From the sequence record SRR31156797_4857: 64,000 nucleotides of DNA, one strand, 5' to 3'. The notes beneath the pieces are model-generated. The model searched no databases. It saw only the letters and a list, made by a program, of their open reading frames with translations, and was not told the DNA's origin. The position numbers and the translations under genes were made by a program. This document shows, piece by piece, positions 21,756 to 54,335 of this stretch; positions within the stretch are counted from its first letter, which is position 1; every line of letters starts with the position of its first letter.

Positions 21756-22793
21756 GTGGAACCGTTGAAGCGTAAAAGAAACAGCCTGGCAAGGCGAAGA
21801 TGGCAGTTGTTTCGCAGGAATAAACGAGGATATTATTCTTTGATTCTGTTTCTGCTCCTTTTTGTTTCCTGCCTCTTTGCAGAAGTATTAAGCAATGATA
21901 AACCTTTTTTGGTTCACTATGAGGATCAGTGGTATTTTCCATTGTTTCAGTATTATCCCGAAACGGTTTTTGGAGGCGATTTTGAAACTGAAACCGACTA
22001 CAAGGACCCTTATATTCTGGAAAAATTGACGGTAGAAGGCAACCGGGTTTTCTTCCCGCCTAATCCCCATAGTTATAATTCAATCAACCTTACGCTTCAC
22101 CGTCCAGTTCCTTCACCGCCAACAAAGGAAAATCTTTTAGGTACGGATGACCGAGGACGCGATGTACTGGCACGGCTCATTTACGGATTCAGGCTCAGTG
22201 TTCTCTTTGGACTGGCACTGACAACCATCGGTACTTTACTTGGTATTTTTGCCGGAGCTATGCAAGGGTATTTTGGTGGAAAGCTGGATTTGTTTTTTCA
22301 GCGCTTCATCGAAATATGGGGATCAATGCCGGAGCTTTATTTATTAATTATTTTTGCCTCCATCTTTAAACCCAGTGTTGCTTTGCTTCTTATTTTACTT
22401 TCCCTTTTCGGTTGGATGGGGCTTTCCGATTATGTTCGTGCCGAGTTTCTCAAGGGCAGGAATATGGAATATGTAAAGGCTGCCAAGGCTTTAGGGGTCG
22501 GCAATATAACTATTATGTATCGTCACTTGCTGCCAAACGGTATGACGCCGGTTATTACCTTTCTCCCTTTTCGGATGTCTGGTGCCATTTTGGCTCTTAC
22601 GAGTTTAGATTTCTTAGGGCTTGGAGTTCCGCCTTCCACTCCAAGTCTCGGCGAGCTTTTAGCGCAGGGCAAGGCAAATATTGACGCGTGGTGGCTATCG
22701 CTTTCCACCTTTGTGGTTTTGGTAGGCACCCTTATTTTACTGATTTTTATTGGCGAGGCGCTTCGGGAGGCATTTGATCCGAGAAAACAGTAA
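21756..22793 (+). CDS. yejE: Peptide ABC transporter permease, YejE-like
   Basis: YPETVFGGDFETETDY, LGTDDRGRDVLARLIYGFR, RAEFL, LTSLDFLGLG. Confidence 0.88.
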   Translation: MEPLKRKRNSLARRRWQLFRRNKRGYYSLILFLLLFVSCLFAEVLSNDKPFLVHYEDQWYFPLFQYYPETVFGGDFETETDYKDPYILEKLTVEGNRVFFPPNPHSYNSINLTLHRPVPSPPTKENLLGTDDRGRDVLARLIYGFRLSVLFGLALTTIGTLLGIFAGAMQGYFGGKLDLFFQRFIEIWGSMPELYLLIIFASIFKPSVALLLILLSLFGWMGLSDYVRAEFLKGRNMEYVKAAKALGVGNITIMYRHLLPNGMTPVITFLPFRMSGAILALTSLDFLGLGVPPSTPSLGELLAQGKANIDAWWLSLSTFVVLVGTLILLIFIGEALREAFDPRKQ

Positions 22794-22811
22794 GAAGAGG
22801 CTAGAGGGGAC

Positions 22812-22848
22812 AAAAAAAGGAGACGGCAATAATGCTGTCTCCTTTTTT
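22812..22848. terminator. Bidirectional intrinsic terminator between convergent operons
   Basis: A7-GGAGACGGCA-ATAA-TGCTGTCTCC-T6. Confidence 0.88.
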
Positions 22849-22935
22849 AATGGAAGGAAGAACTGCTTATTATGATACTCAGTTTCCGTAATTATTCAGA
22901 GAAGAGTGTCCTGTTATTTAATTGTTGAGGTGACA

Positions 22936-25482
22936 CTAGTTCTCTTTTTTTAGTTCATCCCGTAGTTGATTAAACTCGTCTTGTATCATGTTTTTGATAA
23001 GGCTTAATTCTGAGGGCTCAGAAGGGGCTGGGACAACTTTATCACTGGCCGCTGGTGATGTTGCTGAAGGGAGTACGAGCCCTGGTTTCGTCGACTTGGC
23101 AATGGTGGCCACAACTCCGGCCTGCCATCCAAGATACTGTTCGATGGCGTCGGTCATGTCCTCGGTGGAGACAGAAGGGCGGTTCATCTGTTCAAAAAGA
23201 AGATTGATCACTTTTTCTGTCTCGGCAAGATCAATAAATCGGCTGTGAACCAGCTGGTCAATAATCGCACCCATAAGTCGTCCAATGACTTTTTCTTCGC
23301 TCTCTTGTTCGATATTTTTGAGTTGCGTGAGTAGCTTTGCAGCCTCGGCAATCCCTTCATCAGTGGGCGCTCTTACAGTACTTGGCAGAACAGCTCCCAA
23401 TGCAGCAAGATAGACCTCTTTGTCTTCTGTTGCATTAGAAGTGCGTTCTTCTCCTTCTTCTTCTTTGACAGGGGCAGCAAAGGCAGGTAAAGGGGTGCTC
23501 AGTTCCAGGCCCGGTTCGTCCTCATCATCTTCACTTGCATCAAAAAAGAAATCGAGCTGTTCTTCGAGCTCATTCTCTTGACTGTCTTGTTGTAGACTGT
23601 CAATATTATTTGCTGTTGCAGGAGCAAAATCCAGTGAGGAGTCAAGCCGCTCATTCTTGGTATCGTCACTTCCAAAGATATCAAGGGTGTCCTCGAAATT
23701 TTCGTCAGCGTCGCTGAAGTTGGTTTCAAGTAAAGAGGCTTCATCATCTTTCTCATCAAAAAAGAAATCGAGCTTTTCCTCGATATCACCAAGAGGTGCC
23801 TTGGGCAATGATTCCATTGATTCTTCTATGGAAAAGCCCTGTTCATCTGAGCTGCCGGAAAGGGCTGGGGTAATGCCACTGTCCACTTCCTTCTGATGTA
23901 GTGGTAATTCTGCCTCATCCGTACTGGTTTCCTTATCGGAGAAAAAAGTGTCTAATTTGCTCTCAATGTCAAGGTCGAGCTCTTGTTCATTAGGTGCTAT
24001 AGAATCTTCTTCATCAGTTGTAAAATCAAAATTTGCCAAGGCAACATCAAGGGGCACCTCATCGGCCAAGGCTGGTACAGGCTCGCCTTCATTGGCTGTG
24101 ACTTTTTCTTCATCTTCTTCTGCAGCATCATCGCCGAAGATGTCATTGTCAAAGAGCTTGTCCAGTTGATCGTTTAGATCGCTTTGTGCTGGGACATCAA
24201 GTGGCTCTGTGTCCTCATTAAAACCAAAAACTTCATCCGATCCCGATAGTGCTGGGGCAAAATCCCTTTTGGTCCGCAGTTCAGTCTCAATATATTCATC
24301 CGCAACATCATCACTGATGGGATGAATTGCATCAGGGGGCAAGACTTCGTCTGGATATTTTTGACTTGAAGTTTCCATGGCTGGAGCATTGTCAACCGGA
24401 AAGAGGTCGTCAAGTTCGGCTTCAATATCCCCAGGGAACTCTTCGGCGTCCTCTGATTCTTTTGCTGCTGTAAATTCCTGCAAGGCCTCAGCTGTTGAAT
24501 CTTCGGAAGTGACTTCAGGCGGTTGTTCGGTAACGGCCATTTCTTCAACGAGGCCATCAATAAGTTTTTCAGATGGTGGTGAAGGCTGCTCAATGATAAG
24601 AGCTTTCAGAGCATTGAGACGGCCAATGCGATCAACCAACAAGGTTTGGAGCTGTTGCTTATCCCGCTTGTCTGGATCAACATGCAGTACCTGGTCAAGC
24701 CCTTCGGAAAAGGCGTGGAGGAGTGTGAAGGACTCAGGGTGGGCAGCCGCTCCCGATTCTGAAATATAATCCCCCAGTGCACTTAAACCCTGGACAAGCA
24801 CCATCGCGGGTTTGTCGCCTGCAAGTACTTGGTGAAAGTAATCCAATTGGCTAGATAATTGCTGTAAACTATCTTCTGTGACCTCCCAGTCCAGGCTCAG
24901 GATACTCGCCTTGAGAAGTTTTAAGTGATCATCTTCTGCATGATGAACAGCTTGTTTTTCCTCAACATCAGCCTGGAGCAATACGGGTTCTTCAATAATT
25001 GTGCCGGGCCCAGGCTCGTCTTCCTGATTCACCTGATACTGCAGGATACGAAATTTACGAACATCTCCCTTAAGCAGTAAAGAAATTTCTTCTTCGGTAA
25101 TTTTTTCTGAAGAGGTGATTTTTTCAAAGTTATAATAAAAGGTAAGGAGCAGCTTAATGGCATTGTGGTGGGCGTAGGCTCCTTTACTTCGTATATAACG
25201 CCCTATCTTGTCCAAGCCTTGAAGGTAAACTTCGGCAACTTTGTCATCCTGCCAGTGTCCCTGAAGTACCTGTAATTCATCGGTGAGTTCCTGAAGAATC
25301 TCATCATTAATTTCCCAGTCCAGGGAAAGGATAATGGACTTCAGGCGGGTTAATATCGAGTCATCTTCACTGGAAAACTCAAAAAGGTCCACATCACCAG
25401 TATCAAAGGATTCGTCCGCAAAAAGCGTCAGATCCTCATATTCATCAAAGCTGTTTTTTTGTTCTTCCTGGGAATTTTTCAT
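22936..25482 (-). CDS. Large acidic hypothetical protein (848 aa): two homologous helical domains, a repeat-containing acidic linker and a C-terminal helical region
   Basis: Duplicated LKxxILSLDWE domains; D/E-rich middle with repeated PAL and DIExxLDxFF motifs; 36 nt downstream of mglA on the same strand. Confidence 0.9.
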   Translation of the reverse strand: MKNSQEEQKNSFDEYEDLTLFADESFDTGDVDLFEFSSEDDSILTRLKSIILSLDWEINDEILQELTDELQVLQGHWQDDKVAEVYLQGLDKIGRYIRSKGAYAHHNAIKLLLTFYYNFEKITSSEKITEEEISLLLKGDVRKFRILQYQVNQEDEPGPGTIIEEPVLLQADVEEKQAVHHAEDDHLKLLKASILSLDWEVTEDSLQQLSSQLDYFHQVLAGDKPAMVLVQGLSALGDYISESGAAAHPESFTLLHAFSEGLDQVLHVDPDKRDKQQLQTLLVDRIGRLNALKALIIEQPSPPSEKLIDGLVEEMAVTEQPPEVTSEDSTAEALQEFTAAKESEDAEEFPGDIEAELDDLFPVDNAPAMETSSQKYPDEVLPPDAIHPISDDVADEYIETELRTKRDFAPALSGSDEVFGFNEDTEPLDVPAQSDLNDQLDKLFDNDIFGDDAAEEDEEKVTANEGEPVPALADEVPLDVALANFDFTTDEEDSIAPNEQELDLDIESKLDTFFSDKETSTDEAELPLHQKEVDSGITPALSGSSDEQGFSIEESMESLPKAPLGDIEEKLDFFFDEKDDEASLLETNFSDADENFEDTLDIFGSDDTKNERLDSSLDFAPATANNIDSLQQDSQENELEEQLDFFFDASEDDEDEPGLELSTPLPAFAAPVKEEEGEERTSNATEDKEVYLAALGAVLPSTVRAPTDEGIAEAAKLLTQLKNIEQESEEKVIGRLMGAIIDQLVHSRFIDLAETEKVINLLFEQMNRPSVSTEDMTDAIEQYLGWQAGVVATIAKSTKPGLVLPSATSPAASDKVVPAPSEPSELSLIKNMIQDEFNQLRDELKKEN

Positions 25483-25518
25483 AACCTGACCAATGGTTGA
25501 GTATCACGTATCCCCTGC

Positions 25519-26124
25519 TTATTGCAGCTTTTTCTGGATTGATACGACGGTTGAAGATATTATTTTTTTTAGTGTTTCAGCTACGTTGTACCCTGTCAGT
25601 GCACTTCCTTCAAATGCAGGAACCTTGAGCTTGGAGTTAAGATCTTTTTCTAATATAGAAATAGGTAAAATTGGAATACCTTGGTTCCGCAGGTCAACCT
25701 TGTTGTACTGCAAAACAAGGGGGATACGGAAGATCGATTCTTTGTACTCCTGAAGGTTCTCGTGGAGTTGGTTGAGGGAACGGATATTTTTTTCCCGCAT
25801 CTGCTCTTGTGCATCTGCAACAAAGACTATACCGTCCACCCCTTTTAATACCAGTTTACGGGTGGCATTATATTTTACCTGTCCAGGCACCGTATAGAGC
25901 TGAATCTTCAACTCATATCCTTTAATCTGCCCCATGTTAAAGGGGAGGAAATCGAAAAAAAGAGTACGGTCTCCGTGGGTCTTAAGGCTGACCATCTCAG
26001 ATTGGATTTGTTTGGAAAATTTCCGGTTGATGTATTCCAAATTCGTGGTCTTGCCACCACGGCCTGGGCCATAGTAGACAATTTTGACCTGGACTATTTT
26101 TTCTCTGAGGTTTATGAAACTCAA
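25519..26124 (-). CDS. mglA: MglA-family small Ras-like GTPase
   Basis: (M)SFIN..KIVYYGPGRGGKTTNL, DRTLFFDFLP (Arg finger), YTVPGQV, GVDGIVFVAD, NKVD; TTG start at 26124 after a GGAGA SD. Confidence 0.95.
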   Translation of the reverse strand: MSFINLREKIVQVKIVYYGPGRGGKTTNLEYINRKFSKQIQSEMVSLKTHGDRTLFFDFLPFNMGQIKGYELKIQLYTVPGQVKYNATRKLVLKGVDGIVFVADAQEQMREKNIRSLNQLHENLQEYKESIFRIPLVLQYNKVDLRNQGIPILPISILEKDLNSKLKVPAFEGSALTGYNVAETLKKIISSTVVSIQKKLQ

Positions 26125-26205
26125 AATTGTCTCCTGCAGCCAGTGGGTACGAACATAAGGAAGAAGCAACGCATGATAGGAAAATTTTTAGGGAAAGAGC
26201 TAGCC

Positions 26206-26598
26206 TTAACCCCAGAATTTTTTAATGCGGTCAATTGTTTCGACTACGTTGAGACGCAGGAAGCCAAGGGATATATTTTTACCGAACATGGTAATTAAAA
26301 GGAGTTCATCGTCAATTTTAGAGAAATGGATATTGCAATCTGTACCCTTATGAAAGAGGAGTGAAAATTCCTGTTCACCTACCAATTTTGCCATGGCATC
26401 AACTGTAGCAAAGTTTCCGGCAGCAAGGGCAGCAAAAGAATAAACGTCATACTTTGAGGTGCCATTGTCCTTAGCAGTGATAATGTTGCCCGCCATATCG
26501 ATAATAATAACGCAATCGACACCGATCTTGATAAGTTTCTCGGTCAGGATCCCATCTATTTTTTCAAGCTGTTCCTGGCTAACAACTCCATAATTCAT
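26206..26598 (-). CDS. mglB: MglB-family roadblock/LC7 protein (GAP of MglA), lacking the C-terminal extension
   Basis: IDMAGNII, AALAAGNFA..LVGEQEFSLLFHKG, ISLGFLRL; directly upstream of mglA. Confidence 0.9.
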   Translation of the reverse strand: MNYGVVSQEQLEKIDGILTEKLIKIGVDCVIIIDMAGNIITAKDNGTSKYDVYSFAALAAGNFATVDAMAKLVGEQEFSLLFHKGTDCNIHFSKIDDELLLITMFGKNISLGFLRLNVVETIDRIKKFWG

Positions 26599-26840
26599 AT
26601 TGCTACCTCGTGCACGTCAAAGCTATTTATAATAAAGTGTGAAAAATAGTAGTGTTACAATTACAACGAGTATACGCTAGATAAAAAGATATATGAAGTG
26701 GTTTTTGTTGATTCTTCTTTTTTCTCATCCATGGGAACCAGTTTTTATTGTTGAACTTTTGTGCTGCAATAATAGGGGTGTGGGTTCCTGGGTTTTTGGC
26801 ATGACGGCTAGAATTTATTTTTGAAAAGGGGATGATGCCC

Positions 26841-27155
26841 TTATTCCTTTTTTTTATCCTCTGGGGTAAGAGGATTGAGCTTTTCCTTGAATTTTGTATT
26901 CACCGAGTAGACAAAGGCAAGCACTTCTGCCACTGTTTGATACAATTCCGGGGGCAACGCTTCGCCAACCGGTACTTTAGCAAGAAGCTCAACCAAATCA
27001 GGATCTTTCCGGATATAGACTCCTGCTTCCTGGGCAGATTGTATAATATTGCGGGCAACAATACCCTTGCCTGATGCCACCACCTCAGGGGCTGATCCTT
27101 TCTGCTCGTCGTAGCGAAGGGCGACAGCTTTTTCCCGCTTATCTGTAGGTGTCAT
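26841..27155 (-). CDS. FlhB C-terminal-domain-like protein (EscU/YscU switch family; FlhX/YlqH-like)
   Basis: KAVALRY..APEVVASGKG..DPDLVELL..IPPELY-like LPPELYQTVAEVLAFVY; no TM domain. Confidence 0.9.
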   Translation of the reverse strand: MTPTDKREKAVALRYDEQKGSAPEVVASGKGIVARNIIQSAQEAGVYIRKDPDLVELLAKVPVGEALPPELYQTVAEVLAFVYSVNTKFKEKLNPLTPEDKKKE

Positions 27156-27226
27156 CGTATTTCCCCAAATAATTAAAGCAATGCTGTGATTTTGAAAATT
27201 GTGATATATTTTGATGAGGCAGTAAA

Positions 27227-28696
27227 TCAGGCCTTGGTGTTAATAACCCCAGTACTGTCCGCAGTGATCTTCTGGATCAGTGCCCTTACCGGATCATCTA
27301 CTCCGGCAAAGAACTGGGCTGAACCCAAATCAACTGTTGTCAGCCATTGAGCAAGCTCTTCTTTATTTTCGTGCATAAATATCATTTTTTCCCTGTCTTC
27401 AGCAAAAAAACGCAGATTGAGCTGTTCCTGAGTTTGCTGCATTTCTATCCGTAAGCTCCCCAGCCCTTCCAGCTGCAGATGTAGGGTATATACTGACGCA
27501 CTCTCCTTGGACTTCTCACCTTTTCCATCATCTTGCTCAGGTTGTTTGTCAACCAGAAGGTATCCGTGATCAAGAAAAGGGAGTGGTAGAGGGAGAAAGA
27601 AAAGGAATTCACTGGCCAGGCGCAGCTGCAGCATCTGGTAAAGCTCAAGTGTTTGTAAAATTTGTCCTGTTTGTTCACCGGAGGAAATGTTGCTTCCTGT
27701 CAGTTGTTGGTTGAGTTCAAGCAGTGCAAATTTTAAGGTTTGAGCAGCTTCTTGGCCCCTGTTTTGAGCAAATAGCTGCTCCATATTCAGGCCCAATCGC
27801 TCTACCATTTGTTGCAGTTGCTGGCCTTCAGGTGGCGCTGTGGAGGATTGAGTAGTTGAAGGCAGGGAAAGAGCAAGGGATAGAATGGCGTGCAGGTCTC
27901 TCGTTGGCAAGAGGGATTGGTTGTTGAATAGAGAAACGAGTTGGCCAGCGAGTTGTAGTGTTTGCTGGGGTGTCTGCAAGGCGGAGCTTATGGTTTGTTT
28001 AAGCAGAGATATGGGGATCCCTTGCTCATTGCCGGATACAGCAAGAGCAAGCGGCGTTGATCCCGAGAGCTTGTCCAGCAATTGTCCTGTTTGGCTTGCA
28101 GTTATTGTTCCCTCTGGCACCGTAGACTGAATTCTTTGCAGCAGTCCTTCCAGGTGAAGCGCTGCTGCCTGCGGTGTGATAGGCGGATTGGCCTGTAGAG
28201 ATTTGATTACTATGCTGAGTAAGGCGTTACCTGATGCTGTAGTAGACTGTTGTAACGAAGGGTTGAGCTGTACTGCAGATTGGGAGAAAAAGGAAAGAGT
28301 CTGTTTGGCTGTTTCGCTGAGCCCTGCCGTGTTACCGTCTTTGCTGAGTTGTGCAAGGTTTTGCAGCAGTGTTTTTTGAGTATCCAGCGCATGGAGAGCG
28401 GCACCTATTTGCCTGGGAAGAGGATCGTTTACAACCTGGAGCTCAACCTGCGGGGAAACTGCTGTAACGTGGAGGTCGAGCTTTTGTCCTATCTGCAGAA
28501 GAGCTGTAGACTCAGCTTGGAGCTGTTTCCCGCCTATATTTAAGAGGTAGCTGTTGTTATCGGGTTTACCGGTAATGGTGCCCTGAAGTACTTGTCCCTG
28601 GGTAAAAGGAAGAGGTTTACTTCCCTGTCTGCTGTCTTGTTGGCGGTACAGTTGCTGGATATTGAGAATTGAGGCGGGAATAACCGGGAAATCCAT
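27227..28696 (-). CDS. FliK-like hook-length-control-domain protein (second copy)
   Basis: Gln/Leu/Ser-rich body; C-terminal LQLEGLGSLRIEM..LNLRF domain; paired with the FlhB-C-like gene; ATG 28696 follows an AGAGG SD. Confidence 0.7.
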   Translation of the reverse strand: MDFPVIPASILNIQQLYRQQDSRQGSKPLPFTQGQVLQGTITGKPDNNSYLLNIGGKQLQAESTALLQIGQKLDLHVTAVSPQVELQVVNDPLPRQIGAALHALDTQKTLLQNLAQLSKDGNTAGLSETAKQTLSFFSQSAVQLNPSLQQSTTASGNALLSIVIKSLQANPPITPQAAALHLEGLLQRIQSTVPEGTITASQTGQLLDKLSGSTPLALAVSGNEQGIPISLLKQTISSALQTPQQTLQLAGQLVSLFNNQSLLPTRDLHAILSLALSLPSTTQSSTAPPEGQQLQQMVERLGLNMEQLFAQNRGQEAAQTLKFALLELNQQLTGSNISSGEQTGQILQTLELYQMLQLRLASEFLFFLPLPLPFLDHGYLLVDKQPEQDDGKGEKSKESASVYTLHLQLEGLGSLRIEMQQTQEQLNLRFFAEDREKMIFMHENKEELAQWLTTVDLGSAQFFAGVDDPVRALIQKITADSTGVINTKA

Positions 28697-28765
28697 GGTA
28701 TGCCTCTTCTGACTCATCCCAAGGCAAAAGACTTGGTAATTGACTGAAAAGTTAGTGTACAGCTC

Positions 28766-28888
28766 GTAACTGTTTAACTGGGCCCATTGTTTAACGAAAA
28801 TACTCAGTCTCTGAACCACAGACAGTGGCAAAGTAATTGTTTAGCTGTACCTCTGGCTTGTTTAAACGGTTAAGGCAGTTAAAGTTAC
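28766..28888. repeat. Possible related MITE-like element (123 bp)
   Basis: Terminal inverted repeats GTAACTGTTTAACTG ... CAGTTAAAGTTAC; interior does not obviously match the other copies. Confidence 0.5.
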
Positions 28889-28968: not shown

Positions 28969-29643
28969 CTATTCTACTTCAATATTTTCTCTGAGTTGGC
29001 GTCGTTGTTCCTGAAGACAGCAGGAGATGATTTGGTCGCGAACATCATTGGTTATATTTTCGAAATGAAGCGCAACCTGGTAGCGATTTTTCCTCATCCT
29101 GTATGTGCGGACAACATGACCAAAGCAAGAAATAATGTTTTGGCTGGCCGTGTCAGTTATTTTTATGTCAATTCTGTTGTTTGCTTCCGGCTTTTCGGCA
29201 AATAAACCAAGCACTCCACAGCCACTAAGGTCCACCGTTGTTCCCACCATACTCCACTTTTTTAATTTAACTTCTTTGGAGCCTGGAACATATCCTATCT
29301 CGATGGGAGTATTGATGGAAACTCGAAAATATTCTCTCAATGCTTCTGGCTTGATGGGCTCGCGGGCAATAAAGCCCAAGCGTCGATCATTGATGACGGT
29401 GTCAAGTTCTGCGATGATGTTGACATTTGCGCCTTTATGCTTGACTGTTAACTGGCAATTTATCCCAAGTAACAGCTCATCACTGGTCCACGCCTTTGGG
29501 GGGAAAAATAGCTCGAAGTAGGGTGCCTCGGCTTTTGAGAAAATTGCATTGAGCCGATTTTCTTCGTTGTTTTCAATAGGCAGGTCTACAAGAGTTTCTG
29601 ATCCATCCTGCAACTGCTCTATGATTTCTTCTATTTTAGCCAC
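28969..29643 (-). CDS. PilZ-domain protein (flagellar brake-like)
   Basis: REYFR (RxxxR) and DLSGCG (DxSxxG) c-di-GMP motifs. Confidence 0.9.
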   Translation of the reverse strand: MAKIEEIIEQLQDGSETLVDLPIENNEENRLNAIFSKAEAPYFELFFPPKAWTSDELLLGINCQLTVKHKGANVNIIAELDTVINDRRLGFIAREPIKPEALREYFRVSINTPIEIGYVPGSKEVKLKKWSMVGTTVDLSGCGVLGLFAEKPEANNRIDIKITDTASQNIISCFGHVVRTYRMRKNRYQVALHFENITNDVRDQIISCCLQEQRRQLRENIEVE

Positions 29644-29790: not shown

Positions 29791-30480
29791 CTACAAAGGG
29801 TTTTTTATTTGGACTTTCATGCGAAGGTGTTTGCGCTGCAATTCAAAACAGCTTGCCATTATTTTATCTCTATCTTCACTGGTGAGTCTATCGAAATGAA
29901 ACCCGACGTGGTACATTGAATTTTCTATTTTTTTGCAGCGTACTACATGAGCTATGCCTTGCACAACATCCATGAGTCCTGTGGGTAGGGTCAGGTTTAT
30001 GCGTACCTTTTTTCCTTTTTCAAGCGGTTGTGAAAATATACATAAGGCACCGCTGCCGCTTAAATCAACTGTTTCGCCTTCAAGGTGCCACGTGTCTTTT
30101 TCGGCATCCTTTTTGAGTGAGTTGACAGACGTGGCCATGATTGGCGTATTGGCATCAACCCGAAAGTAGTTACGAGCCTGTTCGTGGCTTATAACCTGTA
30201 CAGCTTTAAGTTGAAGGGTTTGATCATCTTCTATTTCCTTAATTTTTGCTGTAACGGATATCGCTTGCCCACCAAGGTCAACTGTGACAACACAGGAGTT
30301 TGTGTTATCCACTCCGGCAGGTAGTGTACCTTCTGGAAAAAAAAGAAAAAAAGATGGTGGTGTTCCTGCACCGTAGATGCACTGAACTCGTTCACTTTGC
30401 TCACTGCCCGACAGGGGAAGTGTGACCCGAACCGCTTTCTGATCTTTTACCTGCGAAAAAAAATCCTCTAATTGCTGCAA
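29791..30480 (-). CDS. PilZ-domain protein (flagellar brake-like), paralog
   Basis: RNYFR and DLSGSG motifs; TTG start at 30480 after a GAGG SD. Confidence 0.9.
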   Translation of the reverse strand: MQQLEDFFSQVKDQKAVRVTLPLSGSEQSERVQCIYGAGTPPSFFLFFPEGTLPAGVDNTNSCVVTVDLGGQAISVTAKIKEIEDDQTLQLKAVQVISHEQARNYFRVDANTPIMATSVNSLKKDAEKDTWHLEGETVDLSGSGALCIFSQPLEKGKKVRINLTLPTGLMDVVQGIAHVVRCKKIENSMYHVGFHFDRLTSEDRDKIMASCFELQRKHLRMKVQIKNPL

Positions 30481-30502
30481 CCGTAACCTCAAATAGCGAT
30501 GA

Positions 30503-51170: not shown

Positions 51171-53265
51171 CGATGTTTACCGTTCCAACGGATTGGATAT
51201 TAATATTTGTCGTAATTTCATTATGTGAGAGAACAGCCAAGCTTGGGAAGTAACGTTCGGTCAGGCGACGAACATGCGGCCTTATCTGTGGGGTTACCAG
51301 CAGCGCTGGTTGCTGTCCTCCAGGGTAATTTGCGATAAGTGAACTGAGACTATCGAGTATCTTCTGGGCAATGGTCGGGTCCAAAGCGAGGTATGAACCG
51401 TGATCTCGGTGCTGGATAGCTGTTTGGACAGTATCTTCTACATTTCTGTCCATGGTCAGAATTGACATGGTGCCGTCATCCTGGGTGTAGGCAACTGAAA
51501 TCGAACGTGACAGGGAATGGCGGACATATTCAGTCAAGGTGTCTGTATCTTGAGTCATTGGTGTGTAGTCAGCCATGGTTTCAAGGATGGAGCGCAAATC
51601 GCGGATAGATACACCTTCACGAAGAAGGTTTTGCAGGACGCGCATGATACTACCCAGATTAAGGATGTTGGGGACCAGTTCTTCTATGAGTTTAGGGTAG
51701 GTGCGGGCGAGATTGTCTATCAGGTTTTGGGTTTCTTGACGACCAAGCAGTTCGTGGGCGTGTTGTTTTATAATTTCACTGATATGGGTGGTCATAACCG
51801 TCGTACAGTCCACAACGGTATAACCTGCTATCTGCGCCTGCTCACGCTTATCGTCAGTTATCCAGATTGCAGGCAGCTGGAAAGCAGGTTCCTGAGTGGG
51901 GATGCCTTTAATGGTATCTGTTACCATGCCTGGGTCCATGGCCATACAATACCCTGGCATCATCTCTGCGGTAGCTATTTGTACTCCCTTCAGACTGATA
52001 GTGTATTGGTTTGGGCTGAGCTGTAGATTATCCTTGATATGGACTGGGGGAACAATAAACCCGCTGGTAACGGCAAACTGTTTACGAATGGATTGGATTC
52101 GCTGTAGTAATTCACCATCTTGGGCAGCATCGACAAAGGGGATCAAGCCATAGCCAACCTCCAGTTCTATCAAATCCACATTGAGCATCTGCTCGTAGTC
52201 TTCGTCAGGCTGGACGGCAGGTTCTGGTTCTTCTATCAGTGGCCTGGCAGCAATCTCCTCTTTTTCTGCTTTGTCTATTTTGTAGGCAGTGTAGGCAAGG
52301 CCTGAGGCTATAATGAGAAAAGGGAAAAACGGCATGCCTGGTATCAAAGCGAAGGCAAGCAATATGCCAGAGACGACCCACAGCGCTTTTGTGTACCTGG
52401 TAAATTGGTTTTTCATCTCCGTCCCAAAATCATCCCGTCCAGACGAAGAACGTGTAACCAACATGCCGGCTGCAGTGGATATGATAAGGGCTGGTACCTG
52501 GCCAACAAGACCGTCACCAATGGTAAGAATGGTATAGTTTTGGGCAGCGTCAGCCATGGGCATGCCTTTCTGGAGAATACCGATAATGAAACCGGCCCCA
52601 ATATTGATCAGGGTGATGATAATCCCTGCAATGGCATCGCCGCGGACAAATTTTGAAGCACCATCCATCGCACCATGGAAGTTGGCTTCATTGGATATTT
52701 CTTCCCGTCTTTCGCGGGCGGTCTGTTCATCAATAAGGCCAGCATTCAGATCGGCATCAATGGCCATCTGTTTACCGGGCATTGCATCAAGGGTGAAGCG
52801 TGCTGCTACCTCGGCAATGCGTCCGGCACCCTTTGTGATAACTATGAAGTTGATGATGACCAAAATGATAAAGACCACCAGGCCGACAACATAGGAACCC
52901 CCAACCACAAATTGGCCAAAGGATTGAATTACCGAGCCGGCAGCGCTCATGCCTTCGTGCCCTCGAAGGAGGATCAGGCGGGTTGAAGCTACGTTTAGAG
53001 ACAGGCGAAAAAGAGTGGTAGCCAGCAAGACAGATGGGAATATGGAAAATTCCACAGCCTTTTGGGTATAGAGGCTGATTATTAAGATAAGAATCGCAAT
53101 GGTAATATTTAAAGAAAGACAAAGGTCCAGTATGATCGGTGGAACAGGGATGATCATCAGGGTCAATATGGCAACCAGTCCCAGCGAGGCAAGAATATCA
53201 CTGCGTTTCAATAAATCTTCTATCTTGAAACGGGTGAGAATTGATTGCGTATTAACTGTTTCCAT
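51160..53265 (-). CDS. flhA: Flagellar export gate protein FlhA
   Basis: RIAEVAARFTLDAMPGKQMAIDADL, GAMDGASKFVRGDA. Confidence 0.98.
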   Translation of the reverse strand: METVNTQSILTRFKIEDLLKRSDILASLGLVAILTLMIIPVPPIILDLCLSLNITIAILILIISLYTQKAVEFSIFPSVLLATTLFRLSLNVASTRLILLRGHEGMSAAGSVIQSFGQFVVGGSYVVGLVVFIILVIINFIVITKGAGRIAEVAARFTLDAMPGKQMAIDADLNAGLIDEQTARERREEISNEANFHGAMDGASKFVRGDAIAGIIITLINIGAGFIIGILQKGMPMADAAQNYTILTIGDGLVGQVPALIISTAAGMLVTRSSSGRDDFGTEMKNQFTRYTKALWVVSGILLAFALIPGMPFFPFLIIASGLAYTAYKIDKAEKEEIAARPLIEEPEPAVQPDEDYEQMLNVDLIELEVGYGLIPFVDAAQDGELLQRIQSIRKQFAVTSGFIVPPVHIKDNLQLSPNQYTISLKGVQIATAEMMPGYCMAMDPGMVTDTIKGIPTQEPAFQLPAIWITDDKREQAQIAGYTVVDCTTVMTTHISEIIKQHAHELLGRQETQNLIDNLARTYPKLIEELVPNILNLGSIMRVLQNLLREGVSIRDLRSILETMADYTPMTQDTDTLTEYVRHSLSRSISVAYTQDDGTMSILTMDRNVEDTVQTAIQHRDHGSYLALDPTIAQKILDSLSSLIANYPGGQQPALLVTPQIRPHVRRLTERYFPSLAVLSHNEITTNINIQSVGTVNIDAS

Positions 53266-54335
53266 TATCTCTTATTGGTTTTTAGTGAGTAGACATAAGC
53301 AAGGATCTCTGCAACTGTCTTAAACAGGTCTTCCGGTATGACCTGTCCTATATCTACTTTCGAATGCAATAATCTTGCCACAGGTGGGTTCTCAACCAAG
53401 GGGACATCGTGCTCTCGGGCGAGCTCTCGTATCCTGGCGGCGACAAGTTGCTGACCTTTGGCAATTACCTCAGGCGCATCCATTGTTTCGGCATTGTATT
53501 TTATTGCAACGGCAATACGAGTTGGGTTTGTAATTACAACATCTGCCTCTGGTACAGCCTCCATCATACGGCTTCTGGCGAGTTGTTGCTGGATGGCACG
53601 TATTTTTGACTTGATGTGCGGATCGCCATCGCTTTCCTTCATTTCCTCCTTGAGTTCTTGTTTAGTCATCTTCATCTTTTCTTCCATTTCCCAACGAACA
53701 AAACCATAGTCAAGGGCAGCAAGGAAAATCATAATTGCGACTACTTTGGCAATAACCAGCGCCGAAGTTTTGCCGAGATAATCAAGAGTTGCGCTAATAT
53801 CCATTCCTCCGAGAAGAAGGGCCTCATCAAATTCTCCTTTAACTGTTTTGTACGCGACCCAGGCAATGAGCAATACTTTGCTCAAAGATTTAATGAGCTC
53901 AACCAGGGCTTTTTTAGAGACAAATCGGCCCATGCCTTTTATGGGATCGAGTTTACTTAAGTCAGGTGCGAGCGGTTTGGCAGTCAACAGCCACCCAATC
54001 TGAAGGTAAGTTGACAAAAAACCAATGAGCAGGGCGACAAGGAAGAGCGGCGCGAGCAACATGCCAAGGTGTTTACCGAGAAAGTAGGATAACTGCATAA
54101 TGGAAGGTGGAGAAACGGCGAATTCTCCACTTTTGTTGAACATCATCATGGTGAGATCCTCAATACCTCTGAAAAATACAGGTGCGTAGAAAAGCCAGAA
54201 AAATAGCATGATGGTAAAAAGCGCAGCCGTTTGTACTTCCTTGCTTTGTGCGACTTGGCCTTTTTTTCTGAAATCATCCCTTCGTTTCGCCGACGGTTCT
54301 TCAGTGCGTTCTCCGCTGGGGGTATCTTCTGCCAT
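53265..54335 (-). CDS. flhB: Export specificity switch FlhB
   Basis: RTEEPSAKR..KGQVAQSKE, KMTKQELKEEMKESDGDP, NPTR at the autocleavage site. Confidence 0.97.
   Translation of the reverse strand: MAEDTPSGERTEEPSAKRRDDFRKKGQVAQSKEVQTAALFTIMLFFWLFYAPVFFRGIEDLTMMMFNKSGEFAVSPPSIMQLSYFLGKHLGMLLAPLFLVALLIGFLSTYLQIGWLLTAKPLAPDLSKLDPIKGMGRFVSKKALVELIKSLSKVLLIAWVAYKTVKGEFDEALLLGGMDISATLDYLGKTSALVIAKVVAIMIFLAALDYGFVRWEMEEKMKMTKQELKEEMKESDGDPHIKSKIRAIQQQLARSRMMEAVPEADVVITNPTRIAVAIKYNAETMDAPEVIAKGQQLVAARIRELAREHDVPLVENPPVARLLHSKVDIGQVIPEDLFKTVAEILAYVYSLKTNKR

Follow-up and report, generated by a model that had tools for sequence, protein, structure and literature searches.

What, if anything, takes the place of the C-terminal acidic helix of MglB where the protein is made without it? 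The question is raised by a 64,000-nt stretch of DNA from sequence record SRR31156797_4857 (hereafter the window), in which mglB and mglA are followed by a gene for an 848-amino-acid (aa) acidic scaffold protein, here called X. The original prediction held that this MglB, the GTPase-activating protein (GAP) subunit, lacks its tail and that repeated acidic helices of X may replace it. Our analysis leaves little doubt that X works together with this MglA/MglB pair. In the best-supported mechanism the X helices would be equivalents of the MglB C-terminal helix (Ct-helix), supplied in trans and docking on MglA; this reading, to which we assign a probability of roughly 0.4, rests on motif identity, operon linkage and a complementary distribution.

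In Myxococcus xanthus, the Ct-helix comprises MglB residues 147-157 and sits in an MglA pocket of α5, β2 and the β2-β3 loop (PMC6785124). Residues named for the helix in this source are I148, D150-152, D154, L156 and F157. The pocket contacts involve D150-D152, D154 (to K185), F157 (to K181), L64 and I67, and D154, L156 and F157 touch MglA in crystal structure 6IZW (PMC6785124). MglB deprived of the Ct-helix is described as binding MglA with guanosine triphosphate (GTP) and not MglA with guanosine diphosphate (GDP) (PMC13408092).

Results

A tail-less MglB in a constant three-gene unit

The window MglB is a Robl_LC7 protein (Pfam, E = 9.7e-6, 25.7 bits, cut-off 23). It covers positions 10-131 of the 161-position NCBIfam MglB model and aligns with M. 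xanthus MglB (6h5b_B, E = 1.7e-15) over chain residues 7-129 of 160. Both alignments bear out the earlier observation that the protein stops at 130 aa (..IKKFWG) after the Roadblock fold: its end lies 1-2 residues beyond the fold, and tailed relatives run about 30-45 aa longer. It has the Roadblock/LC7 domain of solved MglB and is encoded next to mglA, and it lacks what marks an MglB of the Myxococcus type (GAP and exchange factor in one), a C-terminal stretch longer than 15 aa that contains a D/E-rich helix. Only 81 nt separate the mglB stop from the mglA start. MglA aligns with M. xanthus MglA (6hjh_A, E = 2.4e-52) from residue 16 of its open reading frame (ORF), and its TVPGQ motif (PM3; T78), which identifies it as an MglA, is invariant in 48 MglA sequences; Thr78 is described as an MglA hallmark (PMC3000849).

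The unit recurs in 78 related loci, mostly from Desulfobulbaceae, with mglB upstream of X in 74 and mglA in 75 of them, the remaining loci being cut by contig ends. Across these loci MglB and MglA are 84-97% identical to those of the window and X just 31-76%; among named relatives Desulfogranum marinum DSM 2058 comes closest, with an X that is 76% identical. Flagellar neighbours of the unit are kept within Desulfobulbaceae only, and Desulfamplus, Desulfurivibrionaceae and locus L066 have different neighbours. Because the flanks vary between lineages, the constant unit is mglB-mglA-X. A promoter and terminator scan of positions 22600-27400 gave signals no higher than shuffles and did not set the operon boundary. 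The features of the unit and its neighbours are listed in Table 1.

Table 1. Positions of the mglB-mglA-X unit, the elements of X and neighbouring genes in the window (pLDDT, predicted local distance difference test, from AlphaFold2 models; residue numbers refer to X)
Feature	Coordinates	Strand	Remarks
mglB	26206..26598	-	Roadblock/LC7 GAP subunit, 130 aa, without C-terminal acidic helix
mglA	25519..26124	-	201 aa; TTG start at 26124, ribosome-binding site AGGAGA at 26130-26135
X gene	22936..25482	-	848-aa acidic scaffold protein; encoded after mglB and mglA as the last of the three genes
N-terminal acidic/aromatic element, aa 13-36 (EDLTLFADESFDTGDVDLFEF)	25375..25446	-	nearly invariant in 85 sequences; occupies the site of the short members' motif (..VDSRLDDLFGEEE at aa ~8-25)
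Five-helix bundle 1, aa 43-154 ('SLDWE' domain)	25021..25356	-	pLDDT ~88-94; CheA-P1-like
Five-helix bundle 2, aa 181-298	24589..24942	-	tandem copy of bundle 1; pLDDT ~91-96; DWE motif with invariant W (W199) in alignment
Motif 1 DIEAELDDLF, aa 352-361	24400..24429	-	predicted helix 353-360; F361 invariant
Conserved 38-aa block, aa 365-402	24277..24390	-	directly after motif 1; from alignments: M369, E370, Y376, P377, D378, A385, I386 invariant; predicted helix 391-407
PAL..GF motif 1, aa 408-421	24220..24261	-	P410, A411, L412 invariant; G420 nearly invariant in both alignments, F421 in one (A1)
Motif 2 DLNDQLDKLF, aa 435-444	24151..24180	-	predicted helix 433-444; L436, L440, D441, L443, F444 invariant (85 sequences)
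Motif 3 DIESKLDTFF, aa 505-514	23941..23970	-	predicted helix 500-514; I506, L510, F513, F514 invariant (85 sequences)
PAL..GF motif 2, aa 537-550	23833..23874	-	A540, L541, G549, F550 invariant
Motif 4 DIEEKLDFFF, aa 566-575	23758..23787	-	predicted helix 564-575; I567, K570, L571, F574, F575 invariant; nearest family consensus [ED][LI][ED][ED][KR]LDxFF
Motif 5 NFEDTLDIFG, aa 595-604	23671..23700	-	degenerate copy, not conserved, poorly aligned (A1); helical at residues 599-601 only in the AlphaFold2 model
Motif 6 ELEEQLDFFF, aa 638-647	23542..23571	-	predicted helix 632-648; L639, L643, D644, F647 nearly invariant (85 sequences)
Helical bundle 3, aa 681-796	23095..23442	-	pLDDT ~82-95; five helices
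C-terminal helix, aa 822-847 (..DEFNQLRDEL..)	22942..23019	-	in all family members, long and short
FlhB C-terminal domain, stand-alone	26841..27155	-	104 aa; Bac_export_2, profile positions 262-335
FliK-like gene	27227..28831	-	with the stand-alone FlhB domain, directly upstream of mglB
PilZ-domain genes, tandem	28969..29643 and 29791..30492	-	between fliS and the FliK-like gene
flhB, full length	53265..54335		

Repeated helices with the core of MglB tails

All six D-x-E-x-x-L-D-x-[LF]-F decapeptides that the original prediction placed in X are present at the positions it gave, on the minus strand. The pattern L-[DE]-x-[FLI]-[FG] occurs six times in aa 345-660 against a mean of 0.2 expected; in 20,000 composition-preserving shuffles the maximum was four and none reached six. 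For five of the six motifs AlphaFold2 predicts a short helix (block pLDDT 55-65). Of the 78 loci, 71 have at least one strict copy; the others comprise six truncated ORFs and L064, which carries LExFF variants. The core is present in 110 of 135 family representatives, and a logo of 297 motif windows reads [ED][LI][ED][ED][KR]-L-D-x-F-F-[GD]-x-[DE][DE].

Relatives carry 1-7 copies per X, including recent tandem expansions (five times EIDDKLDAFF in L027, four times EIESSLDAFF in L043). Such copy numbers, together with the degeneracy of one of the six window copies, would suit an acidic disordered spacer without a specific ligand, its repeats the product of tandem duplication and helical propensity. 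We consider this very improbable. Alignment of 85 homologues shows invariant or nearly invariant motif positions, separated by linkers that change freely in length and sequence, and the motif is retained in family members of just 20-30% identity. It has decayed to 0-1 matches in two genomes (G098, G253) that carry an X orthologue in window-like downstream synteny (convergent peptide ATP-binding cassette permeases); there SLDWE has become SLDQN, and profile searches found no MglA or MglB. This decay fits a function tied to MglA/MglB.

The comparison with genuine tails was drawn from Desulfobacterota. All 16 tailed MglBs whose C-termini were compared, from loci of this phylum, end ..[EI][IL]T[DE]xD[IV][DE]xLF, summarised as ..EITDDDIDNLFS, ..EITDEDIDDLFSF or ..ELTEADIESLFK. 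Six of them, from 60 MglA loci drawn from a phylum sample of 401 genomes, end ..FAEITDDDIDNLFS, ..ITDEDIDNLFSD or ..LTEEDIDKLFNH, and those of ten additional loci ..EITDEDIDDLFSF, ..ELTEADIESLFK or ..GLTEDDVDGLFSF. The Myxococcus tail given in the original prediction (approximately DDDIDNLFSE) agrees with the residues named for the Ct-helix (PMC6785124). X motifs and MglB tails have a common core: a hydrophobic residue, D-x-L-F and then negative charge, with the upstream hydrophobic residue offset by one position between the two. For the helices of X this core can be written [ILV]-D-x-[LF]-F, with acidic residues after it. The nearest match to the tail comes from homologues of motif 1, which read ..LEAEIDSLF or ..LGTEIDNLF. 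When a matrix built from 33 N-terminal X motifs was run over 530 non-X genes (156,088 windows), four of six scanned tails ranked 5th, 8th, 10th and 11th, and a matrix from the internal repeats placed the same four 9th to 18th. Matches in loci of an MglB-less MglA paralogue (L108, L112) were dropped, being not conserved within that group.

Like the M. xanthus Ct-helix, the X motif is a short acidic amphipathic helix on a flexible linker, encoded in the mglA operon, in which a hydrophobic residue precedes D-x-L-F. The Ct-helix, in contrast, lies at the C-terminus of a Roadblock protein, whereas the X helix is carried by a separate protein, N-terminally in short members or internally and repeated. 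Short X proteins of 219-400 aa, found among the 60 sampled loci, have the N-terminal motif (aa ~8-25, e.g. ..ITAEVDSRLDDLFGEEE) ahead of a single bundle, which a linker joins to the C-terminal helix; in distant members the motif at this site reads ..IDQAIDDLFVP, ..IEAKVDSLFVE or ..IEERIDELFRP. The form with a single N-terminal motif is the ancestral form of the X family.

Tail and X almost exclude one another

X homologues number 312 in a 90%-clustered collection, and matches to a profile of the tandem N-terminal bundles amounted to 1074 representative clusters at E <= 0.001, of which 395 reached E <= 1e-30. In the phylum sample, MglA occurs in 229 and the X domain in 79 of the 401 genomes. 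At least 72 of the 84 X proteins have one of the listed MglA matches no more than 2.5 kb away; a further 197 MglA matches stand outside that list.

We tabulated 70 MglA loci, the 60 sampled and 10 of a first set, of which 55 have an MglB. Tail-less MglB was accompanied by X in 46 loci, and tailed MglB stood without X in six and with X in none. X went undetected beside a tail-less MglB in three loci; in one of these (L120) the profile had missed an X-like ORF bearing the N-terminal motif, and the other two (L127, L129) have no such ORF. The remaining loci comprised 13 with neither an adjacent MglB nor X and two with X in which MglB was not found. Ten further tailed loci had no X either, so that X adjoins a tailed MglB in 0 of 16 loci. 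Per genome, 69 of the 401 have a tailed MglB, 79 have X and one has both (Fisher p = 1.6e-6, uncorrected for phylogeny); in that genome (G359) they are found on different contigs, and an mglA accompanies each of them. The 69 tailed genomes were chosen by hand: matches reaching query position >=153 of 161 were kept, and rows ending at <=145 were dropped, as were two read-through rows with an internal TGA. Tail and X are thus almost mutually exclusive, the outcome that supply in trans would predict for the co-occurrence test proposed in the original prediction.

The MglA pocket and the weight of the evidence

The last helix of MglA is indeed Lys-rich, as had been noted (TLKKIISS..IQKKLQ), and reads ..TLKKIISSTVVSIQKKLQ. 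In the pocket alignment, M. xanthus L64, I67, K181 and K185 correspond to M64, I67, K186 and S190 of the window MglA, so that three of the four named residues (M64, I67, K186) were counted as kept; an additional lysine, K187, is present. TLKK is nearly invariant in the X-linked MglA clade. We rejected pocket conservation as a discriminator, since the basic α5 residue also occurs in MglA paralogues without MglB or X; it is compatible with docking and not diagnostic of it. In a complex prediction of MglA, two MglB, GTP and X residues 329-366, the interface scores (ipSAE, interaction prediction score from aligned errors) were 0.01 and 0.02 against a mark of 0.34, for peptides and disordered chains that lie outside the calibration of that mark and with ESMFold2 run without alignments; these scores weigh neither for nor against docking.

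Several observations weigh against docking in trans. The tailed proteins form one clade on the MglA tree (Shimodaira-Hasegawa-like approximate likelihood ratio test, SH-aLRT, 100) and the trait changes once; the distribution is therefore a single independent contrast and carries no statistical weight. Thermus MglB is described as lacking the Ct-helix (PMC13408092), so a tail-less MglB is viable as a plain GAP and a replacement is not obligatory. Within the pocket, K185, which pairs with D154 in Myxococcus, is replaced by Ser190, and the basic residue at the K181 position is shared with the paralogues that have neither MglB nor X. As to the motifs, four of the six window copies finish FF or FG instead of LF (LDxLF in two, LDxFF in three, LDxFG in one), K/R is usual in X where the tail has its third Asp (position -1, 58% K/R), and the helices reach moderate confidence in AlphaFold2 monomer models (pLDDT 55-74). 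In two genomes (G243, G299), moreover, a 365-aa X-like protein keeps two N-terminal motifs and has lost SLDWE, and profile searches detected no MglA or MglB; this speaks against strict dependence on MglA, unless the assemblies are incomplete. The claim that the tail is supplied in trans consequently stands in part: the core shared with real tails and the near-exclusive distribution speak for it, and the single phylogenetic event, Thermus and the Ser in place of K185 against it.

The bundles of X and other possible ligands

X has no Pfam or NCBIfam family match at E up to 0.1. An AlphaFold2 model of the full-length protein, built on the 85-homologue alignment, had a mean pLDDT of 65. The PAL(S/A) motifs reported to alternate with the helices were both found; they follow the pattern P-A-L-[SA]-x(5-8)-G-F and, with the 38-aa block, are limited to long Desulfobulbaceae forms. 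For a short form of 221 aa (L098), modelled on a 13-sequence alignment, pLDDT was 64-74 in the N-terminal helix, 88-93 in the bundle and 83-94 in the C-terminal helix, with a disordered linker.

The bundle of this short form aligned with CheA P1 (1i5n_A) at Z = 12.8 and a root-mean-square deviation of 2.6 over 110 of 128 residues (VIA-align). Among 48,161 chains, CheA P1 took ranks 2, 3, 4, 6 and 7 behind a designed repeat protein, with Z-scores of 12.8, 12.7, 11.7 (3kyj_A), 10.5 (2ld6) and 9.6, although helical bundles may share an arrangement only. With Foldseek the top five rows for the short-form model were likewise CheA P1 chains (E 0.44-0.61), none at E <= 0.001, and the full-length model had no PDB match at E <= 0.001. 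No Pfam Hpt match appeared at E up to 10 for the three window bundles and two short forms. The sole conserved His (AHP motif) is replaced in several members, which sets the bundle apart from Hpt domains with a phospho-accepting His. We therefore describe the modelled fold as CheA-P1-like and leave homology aside: the modelled bundle may share the five-helix topology of CheA P1, and some X members have a CheW-like (P5-like) domain, but X differs from CheA P1 in the missing Hpt match and the replaced His.

Three bundles beside six helices in one protein raise the alternative that the helices bind the P1-like bundles of X itself, by helix addition in cis or between molecules. X would then inhibit itself or build a multivalent network, such as a polar condensate or matrix, and MglA/MglB would bind the bundles or the C-terminal helix. 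The moderately confident N-terminal helix beside the confident bundle of the short form would suit this, as would G243 and G299, which keep the motif though MglA/MglB were not found. Packing of the helices in the full-length model is not confident, however, as their pLDDT reaches 55-65 only. Since a short form has just a single motif beside a single bundle, a network would not be the ancestral role, and self-binding leaves both the motif core common to MglB tails and the exclusion of tail and X unexplained. We regard it as unlikely.

A P1-like bundle could also point to a different partner: a CheY-like receiver (the alternative offered in the original prediction), a FlhG-type flagellar placement ATPase or the MglB dimer, through which X would link the switch to chemosensory or flagellar machinery. 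Three distant members end in a CheW-like domain (L114:5648-6946, 6e-18; L116:5656-7059, 1e-14; L130:5649-6791, weak at 2e-3), and the flagellar cluster that ends with the unit in the window contains flhF, flhG, fliA and two PilZ genes. The CheY-binding peptides at the C-terminus of CheZ and the N-terminus of FliM are acidic and amphipathic with hydrophobic or aromatic ends, and act in motility, and the X motifs may resemble them in this; in contrast, no receiver gene is a conserved neighbour of X, mglB-mglA alone being constant. Flagellar context, moreover, is restricted to Desulfobulbaceae, and recruitment of such a partner leaves the exclusion of the MglB tail unexplained. This alternative, too, seems improbable to us.

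The three distant members combine an I-D-x-L-F helix, a P1-like bundle and a CheW-like domain, an arrangement resembling CheA reduced to P1 and P5. The X of L086 terminates differently, with a membrane segment and a HAMP domain. In G243 and G299, the X-like gene adjoins genes that by eye resemble a PP2C phosphatase and a protein kinase.

Some X homologues carry the automatic name FimV (Joint Genome Institute, JGI). Like FimV/HubP, X is large and very acidic, with repeated short motifs and a possible polar or flagellar context; in contrast, it has no LysM domain, membrane segment or FimV C-terminal domain (no Pfam or NCBIfam match). The name was apparently given from composition only. RomX and RomY were rejected as homologues of the bundle on their descriptions: RomX is a three-helix bundle (bioRxiv 10.1101/2024.02.20.581209) against the five helices of X, and RomY, of 188 aa, has a different conserved N-terminal domain (PMC9481161).

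Other MglA proteins and the flagellar surroundings

An MglA paralogue without MglB (α5 ..LKKCLELTL..) was found in eight loci (L102, L105-L110, L112) within a conserved gene set of its own: an upstream protein of ~300 aa, a downstream protein of ~390 aa starting ..LSGxLxFISLADVLQLLG.. and a protein of ~117 aa. In three genomes this paralogue lies 13-25 kb from an X-type module on the same contig. In two further loci (L099, L101), MglA adjoins a MinD/FlhG-like P-loop ATPase, with neither MglB nor X, together with a long protein that by eye has a TPR-like start and a secretion-ATPase-like end; in L099 the second α5 lysine is Ser (TLKSIIT). We also sought natural fusions. No X domain is present in the MglA proteins whose C-terminal extensions are long (L143-L153), and the search for MglB fusions returned one MglB-like protein above 229 aa only, which was irrelevant (weak evidence). 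Among the former, a 947-aa fusion (L143:1721-4564, minus strand) has acidic repeats in its extension (..EEPLFNPKEIMEEGEE..), and shorter MglA proteins have acidic C-terminal extensions as well (L144-L152); together they form a separate subfamily without the X domain.

In the window, the unit forms the end of a large minus-strand flagellar cluster with fliM, fliP, fliR, flhB, flhA, flhF, flhG, fliA, flgF-I, flgK/L, two flagellins, fliD, fliS, two PilZ genes, a FliK-like gene and a stand-alone FlhB C-terminal domain. The pair of FlhB C-terminal domain and FliK-like gene also precedes the unit in other Desulfobulbaceae loci (L052; the FliK-like gene also in L022 and L031). The two tandem PilZ proteins may be cyclic di-GMP inputs to the flagellar motor.

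Discussion

In the literature searched, we found no description of the X family or of this arrangement. New here are the equivalence to the Ct-helix at the level of the motif, the form with a single N-terminal motif, the near-exclusivity of tail and X, and the P1-like fold with its CheW-like fusions. From these comparisons we infer a mechanism of docking, exchange and clustering in which X would join MglA and tail-less MglB as the third, conserved subunit of a polarity switch in Desulfobacterota. The helix that in Myxococcus keeps MglB on MglA-GDP and speeds exchange would here be provided in trans. Each X motif would dock into the MglA pocket and so tether MglA to the scaffold, alone or together with the MglB dimer and whichever nucleotide is bound; nucleotide exchange might be favoured as well. 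GAP and guanine-nucleotide exchange factor (GEF) functions would then be split between MglB and X. The Desulfobulbaceae form would have multiplied the single N-terminal copy of the short members, so that one X could hold several MglA, possibly at the flagellar pole.

A parallel is RomR (with RomX). Like X, it is a non-Roadblock partner of the MglA switch; each has a long stretch of acidic or low-complexity sequence and an acidic helix for which use of the MglA pocket in trans is proposed. RomR is described as a polar scaffold with a long disordered region whose C-terminal Glu-rich helix can replace the MglB Ct-helix; grafted onto MglB in its place, that helix restores GTPase stimulation (PMC6785124). 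The graft sets a precedent for a foreign acidic helix in the role of the tail. The GEF status of RomRX is disputed (PMC13408092). X differs from RomR/RomX in that it has no receiver domain (no Response_reg match, Pfam) and is encoded in the mglBA operon.

A wider version of docking in trans is conceivable, if on balance doubtful. It takes the Ct-helix as a portable short linear motif that was moved, in a large Desulfobacterota lineage, from MglB to a CheA-P1-like scaffold and multiplied in Desulfobulbaceae, giving a trans-acting multivalent exchange and tethering platform at the flagellated pole. Such a transfer may have come about by a shift of gene boundaries. One clade has the gene order mglA-mglB-X (L090:114-2080, L096:5007-6937), in which the motif-coding 5' end of X lies 49-59 nt past the tail-less mglB stop; a boundary shift in this order could move the tail from MglB to X.

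Active questions in bacterial cell polarity concern the means by which the Ct-helix makes MglB an exchange factor as well as a GAP, and the way in which MglA is kept at a pole (PMC6785124; PMC13408092). Were docking of X on MglA true, nature would have separated the two activities genetically, and the pocket could be tested with peptides. X would then be a third core component of the MglA switch in about one fifth of the sampled genomes (79 of 401) of Desulfobacterota, a phylum that includes sulfate reducers and cable bacteria, and would link that switch to CheA-like parts and, in Desulfobulbaceae, to the flagellar gene cluster.

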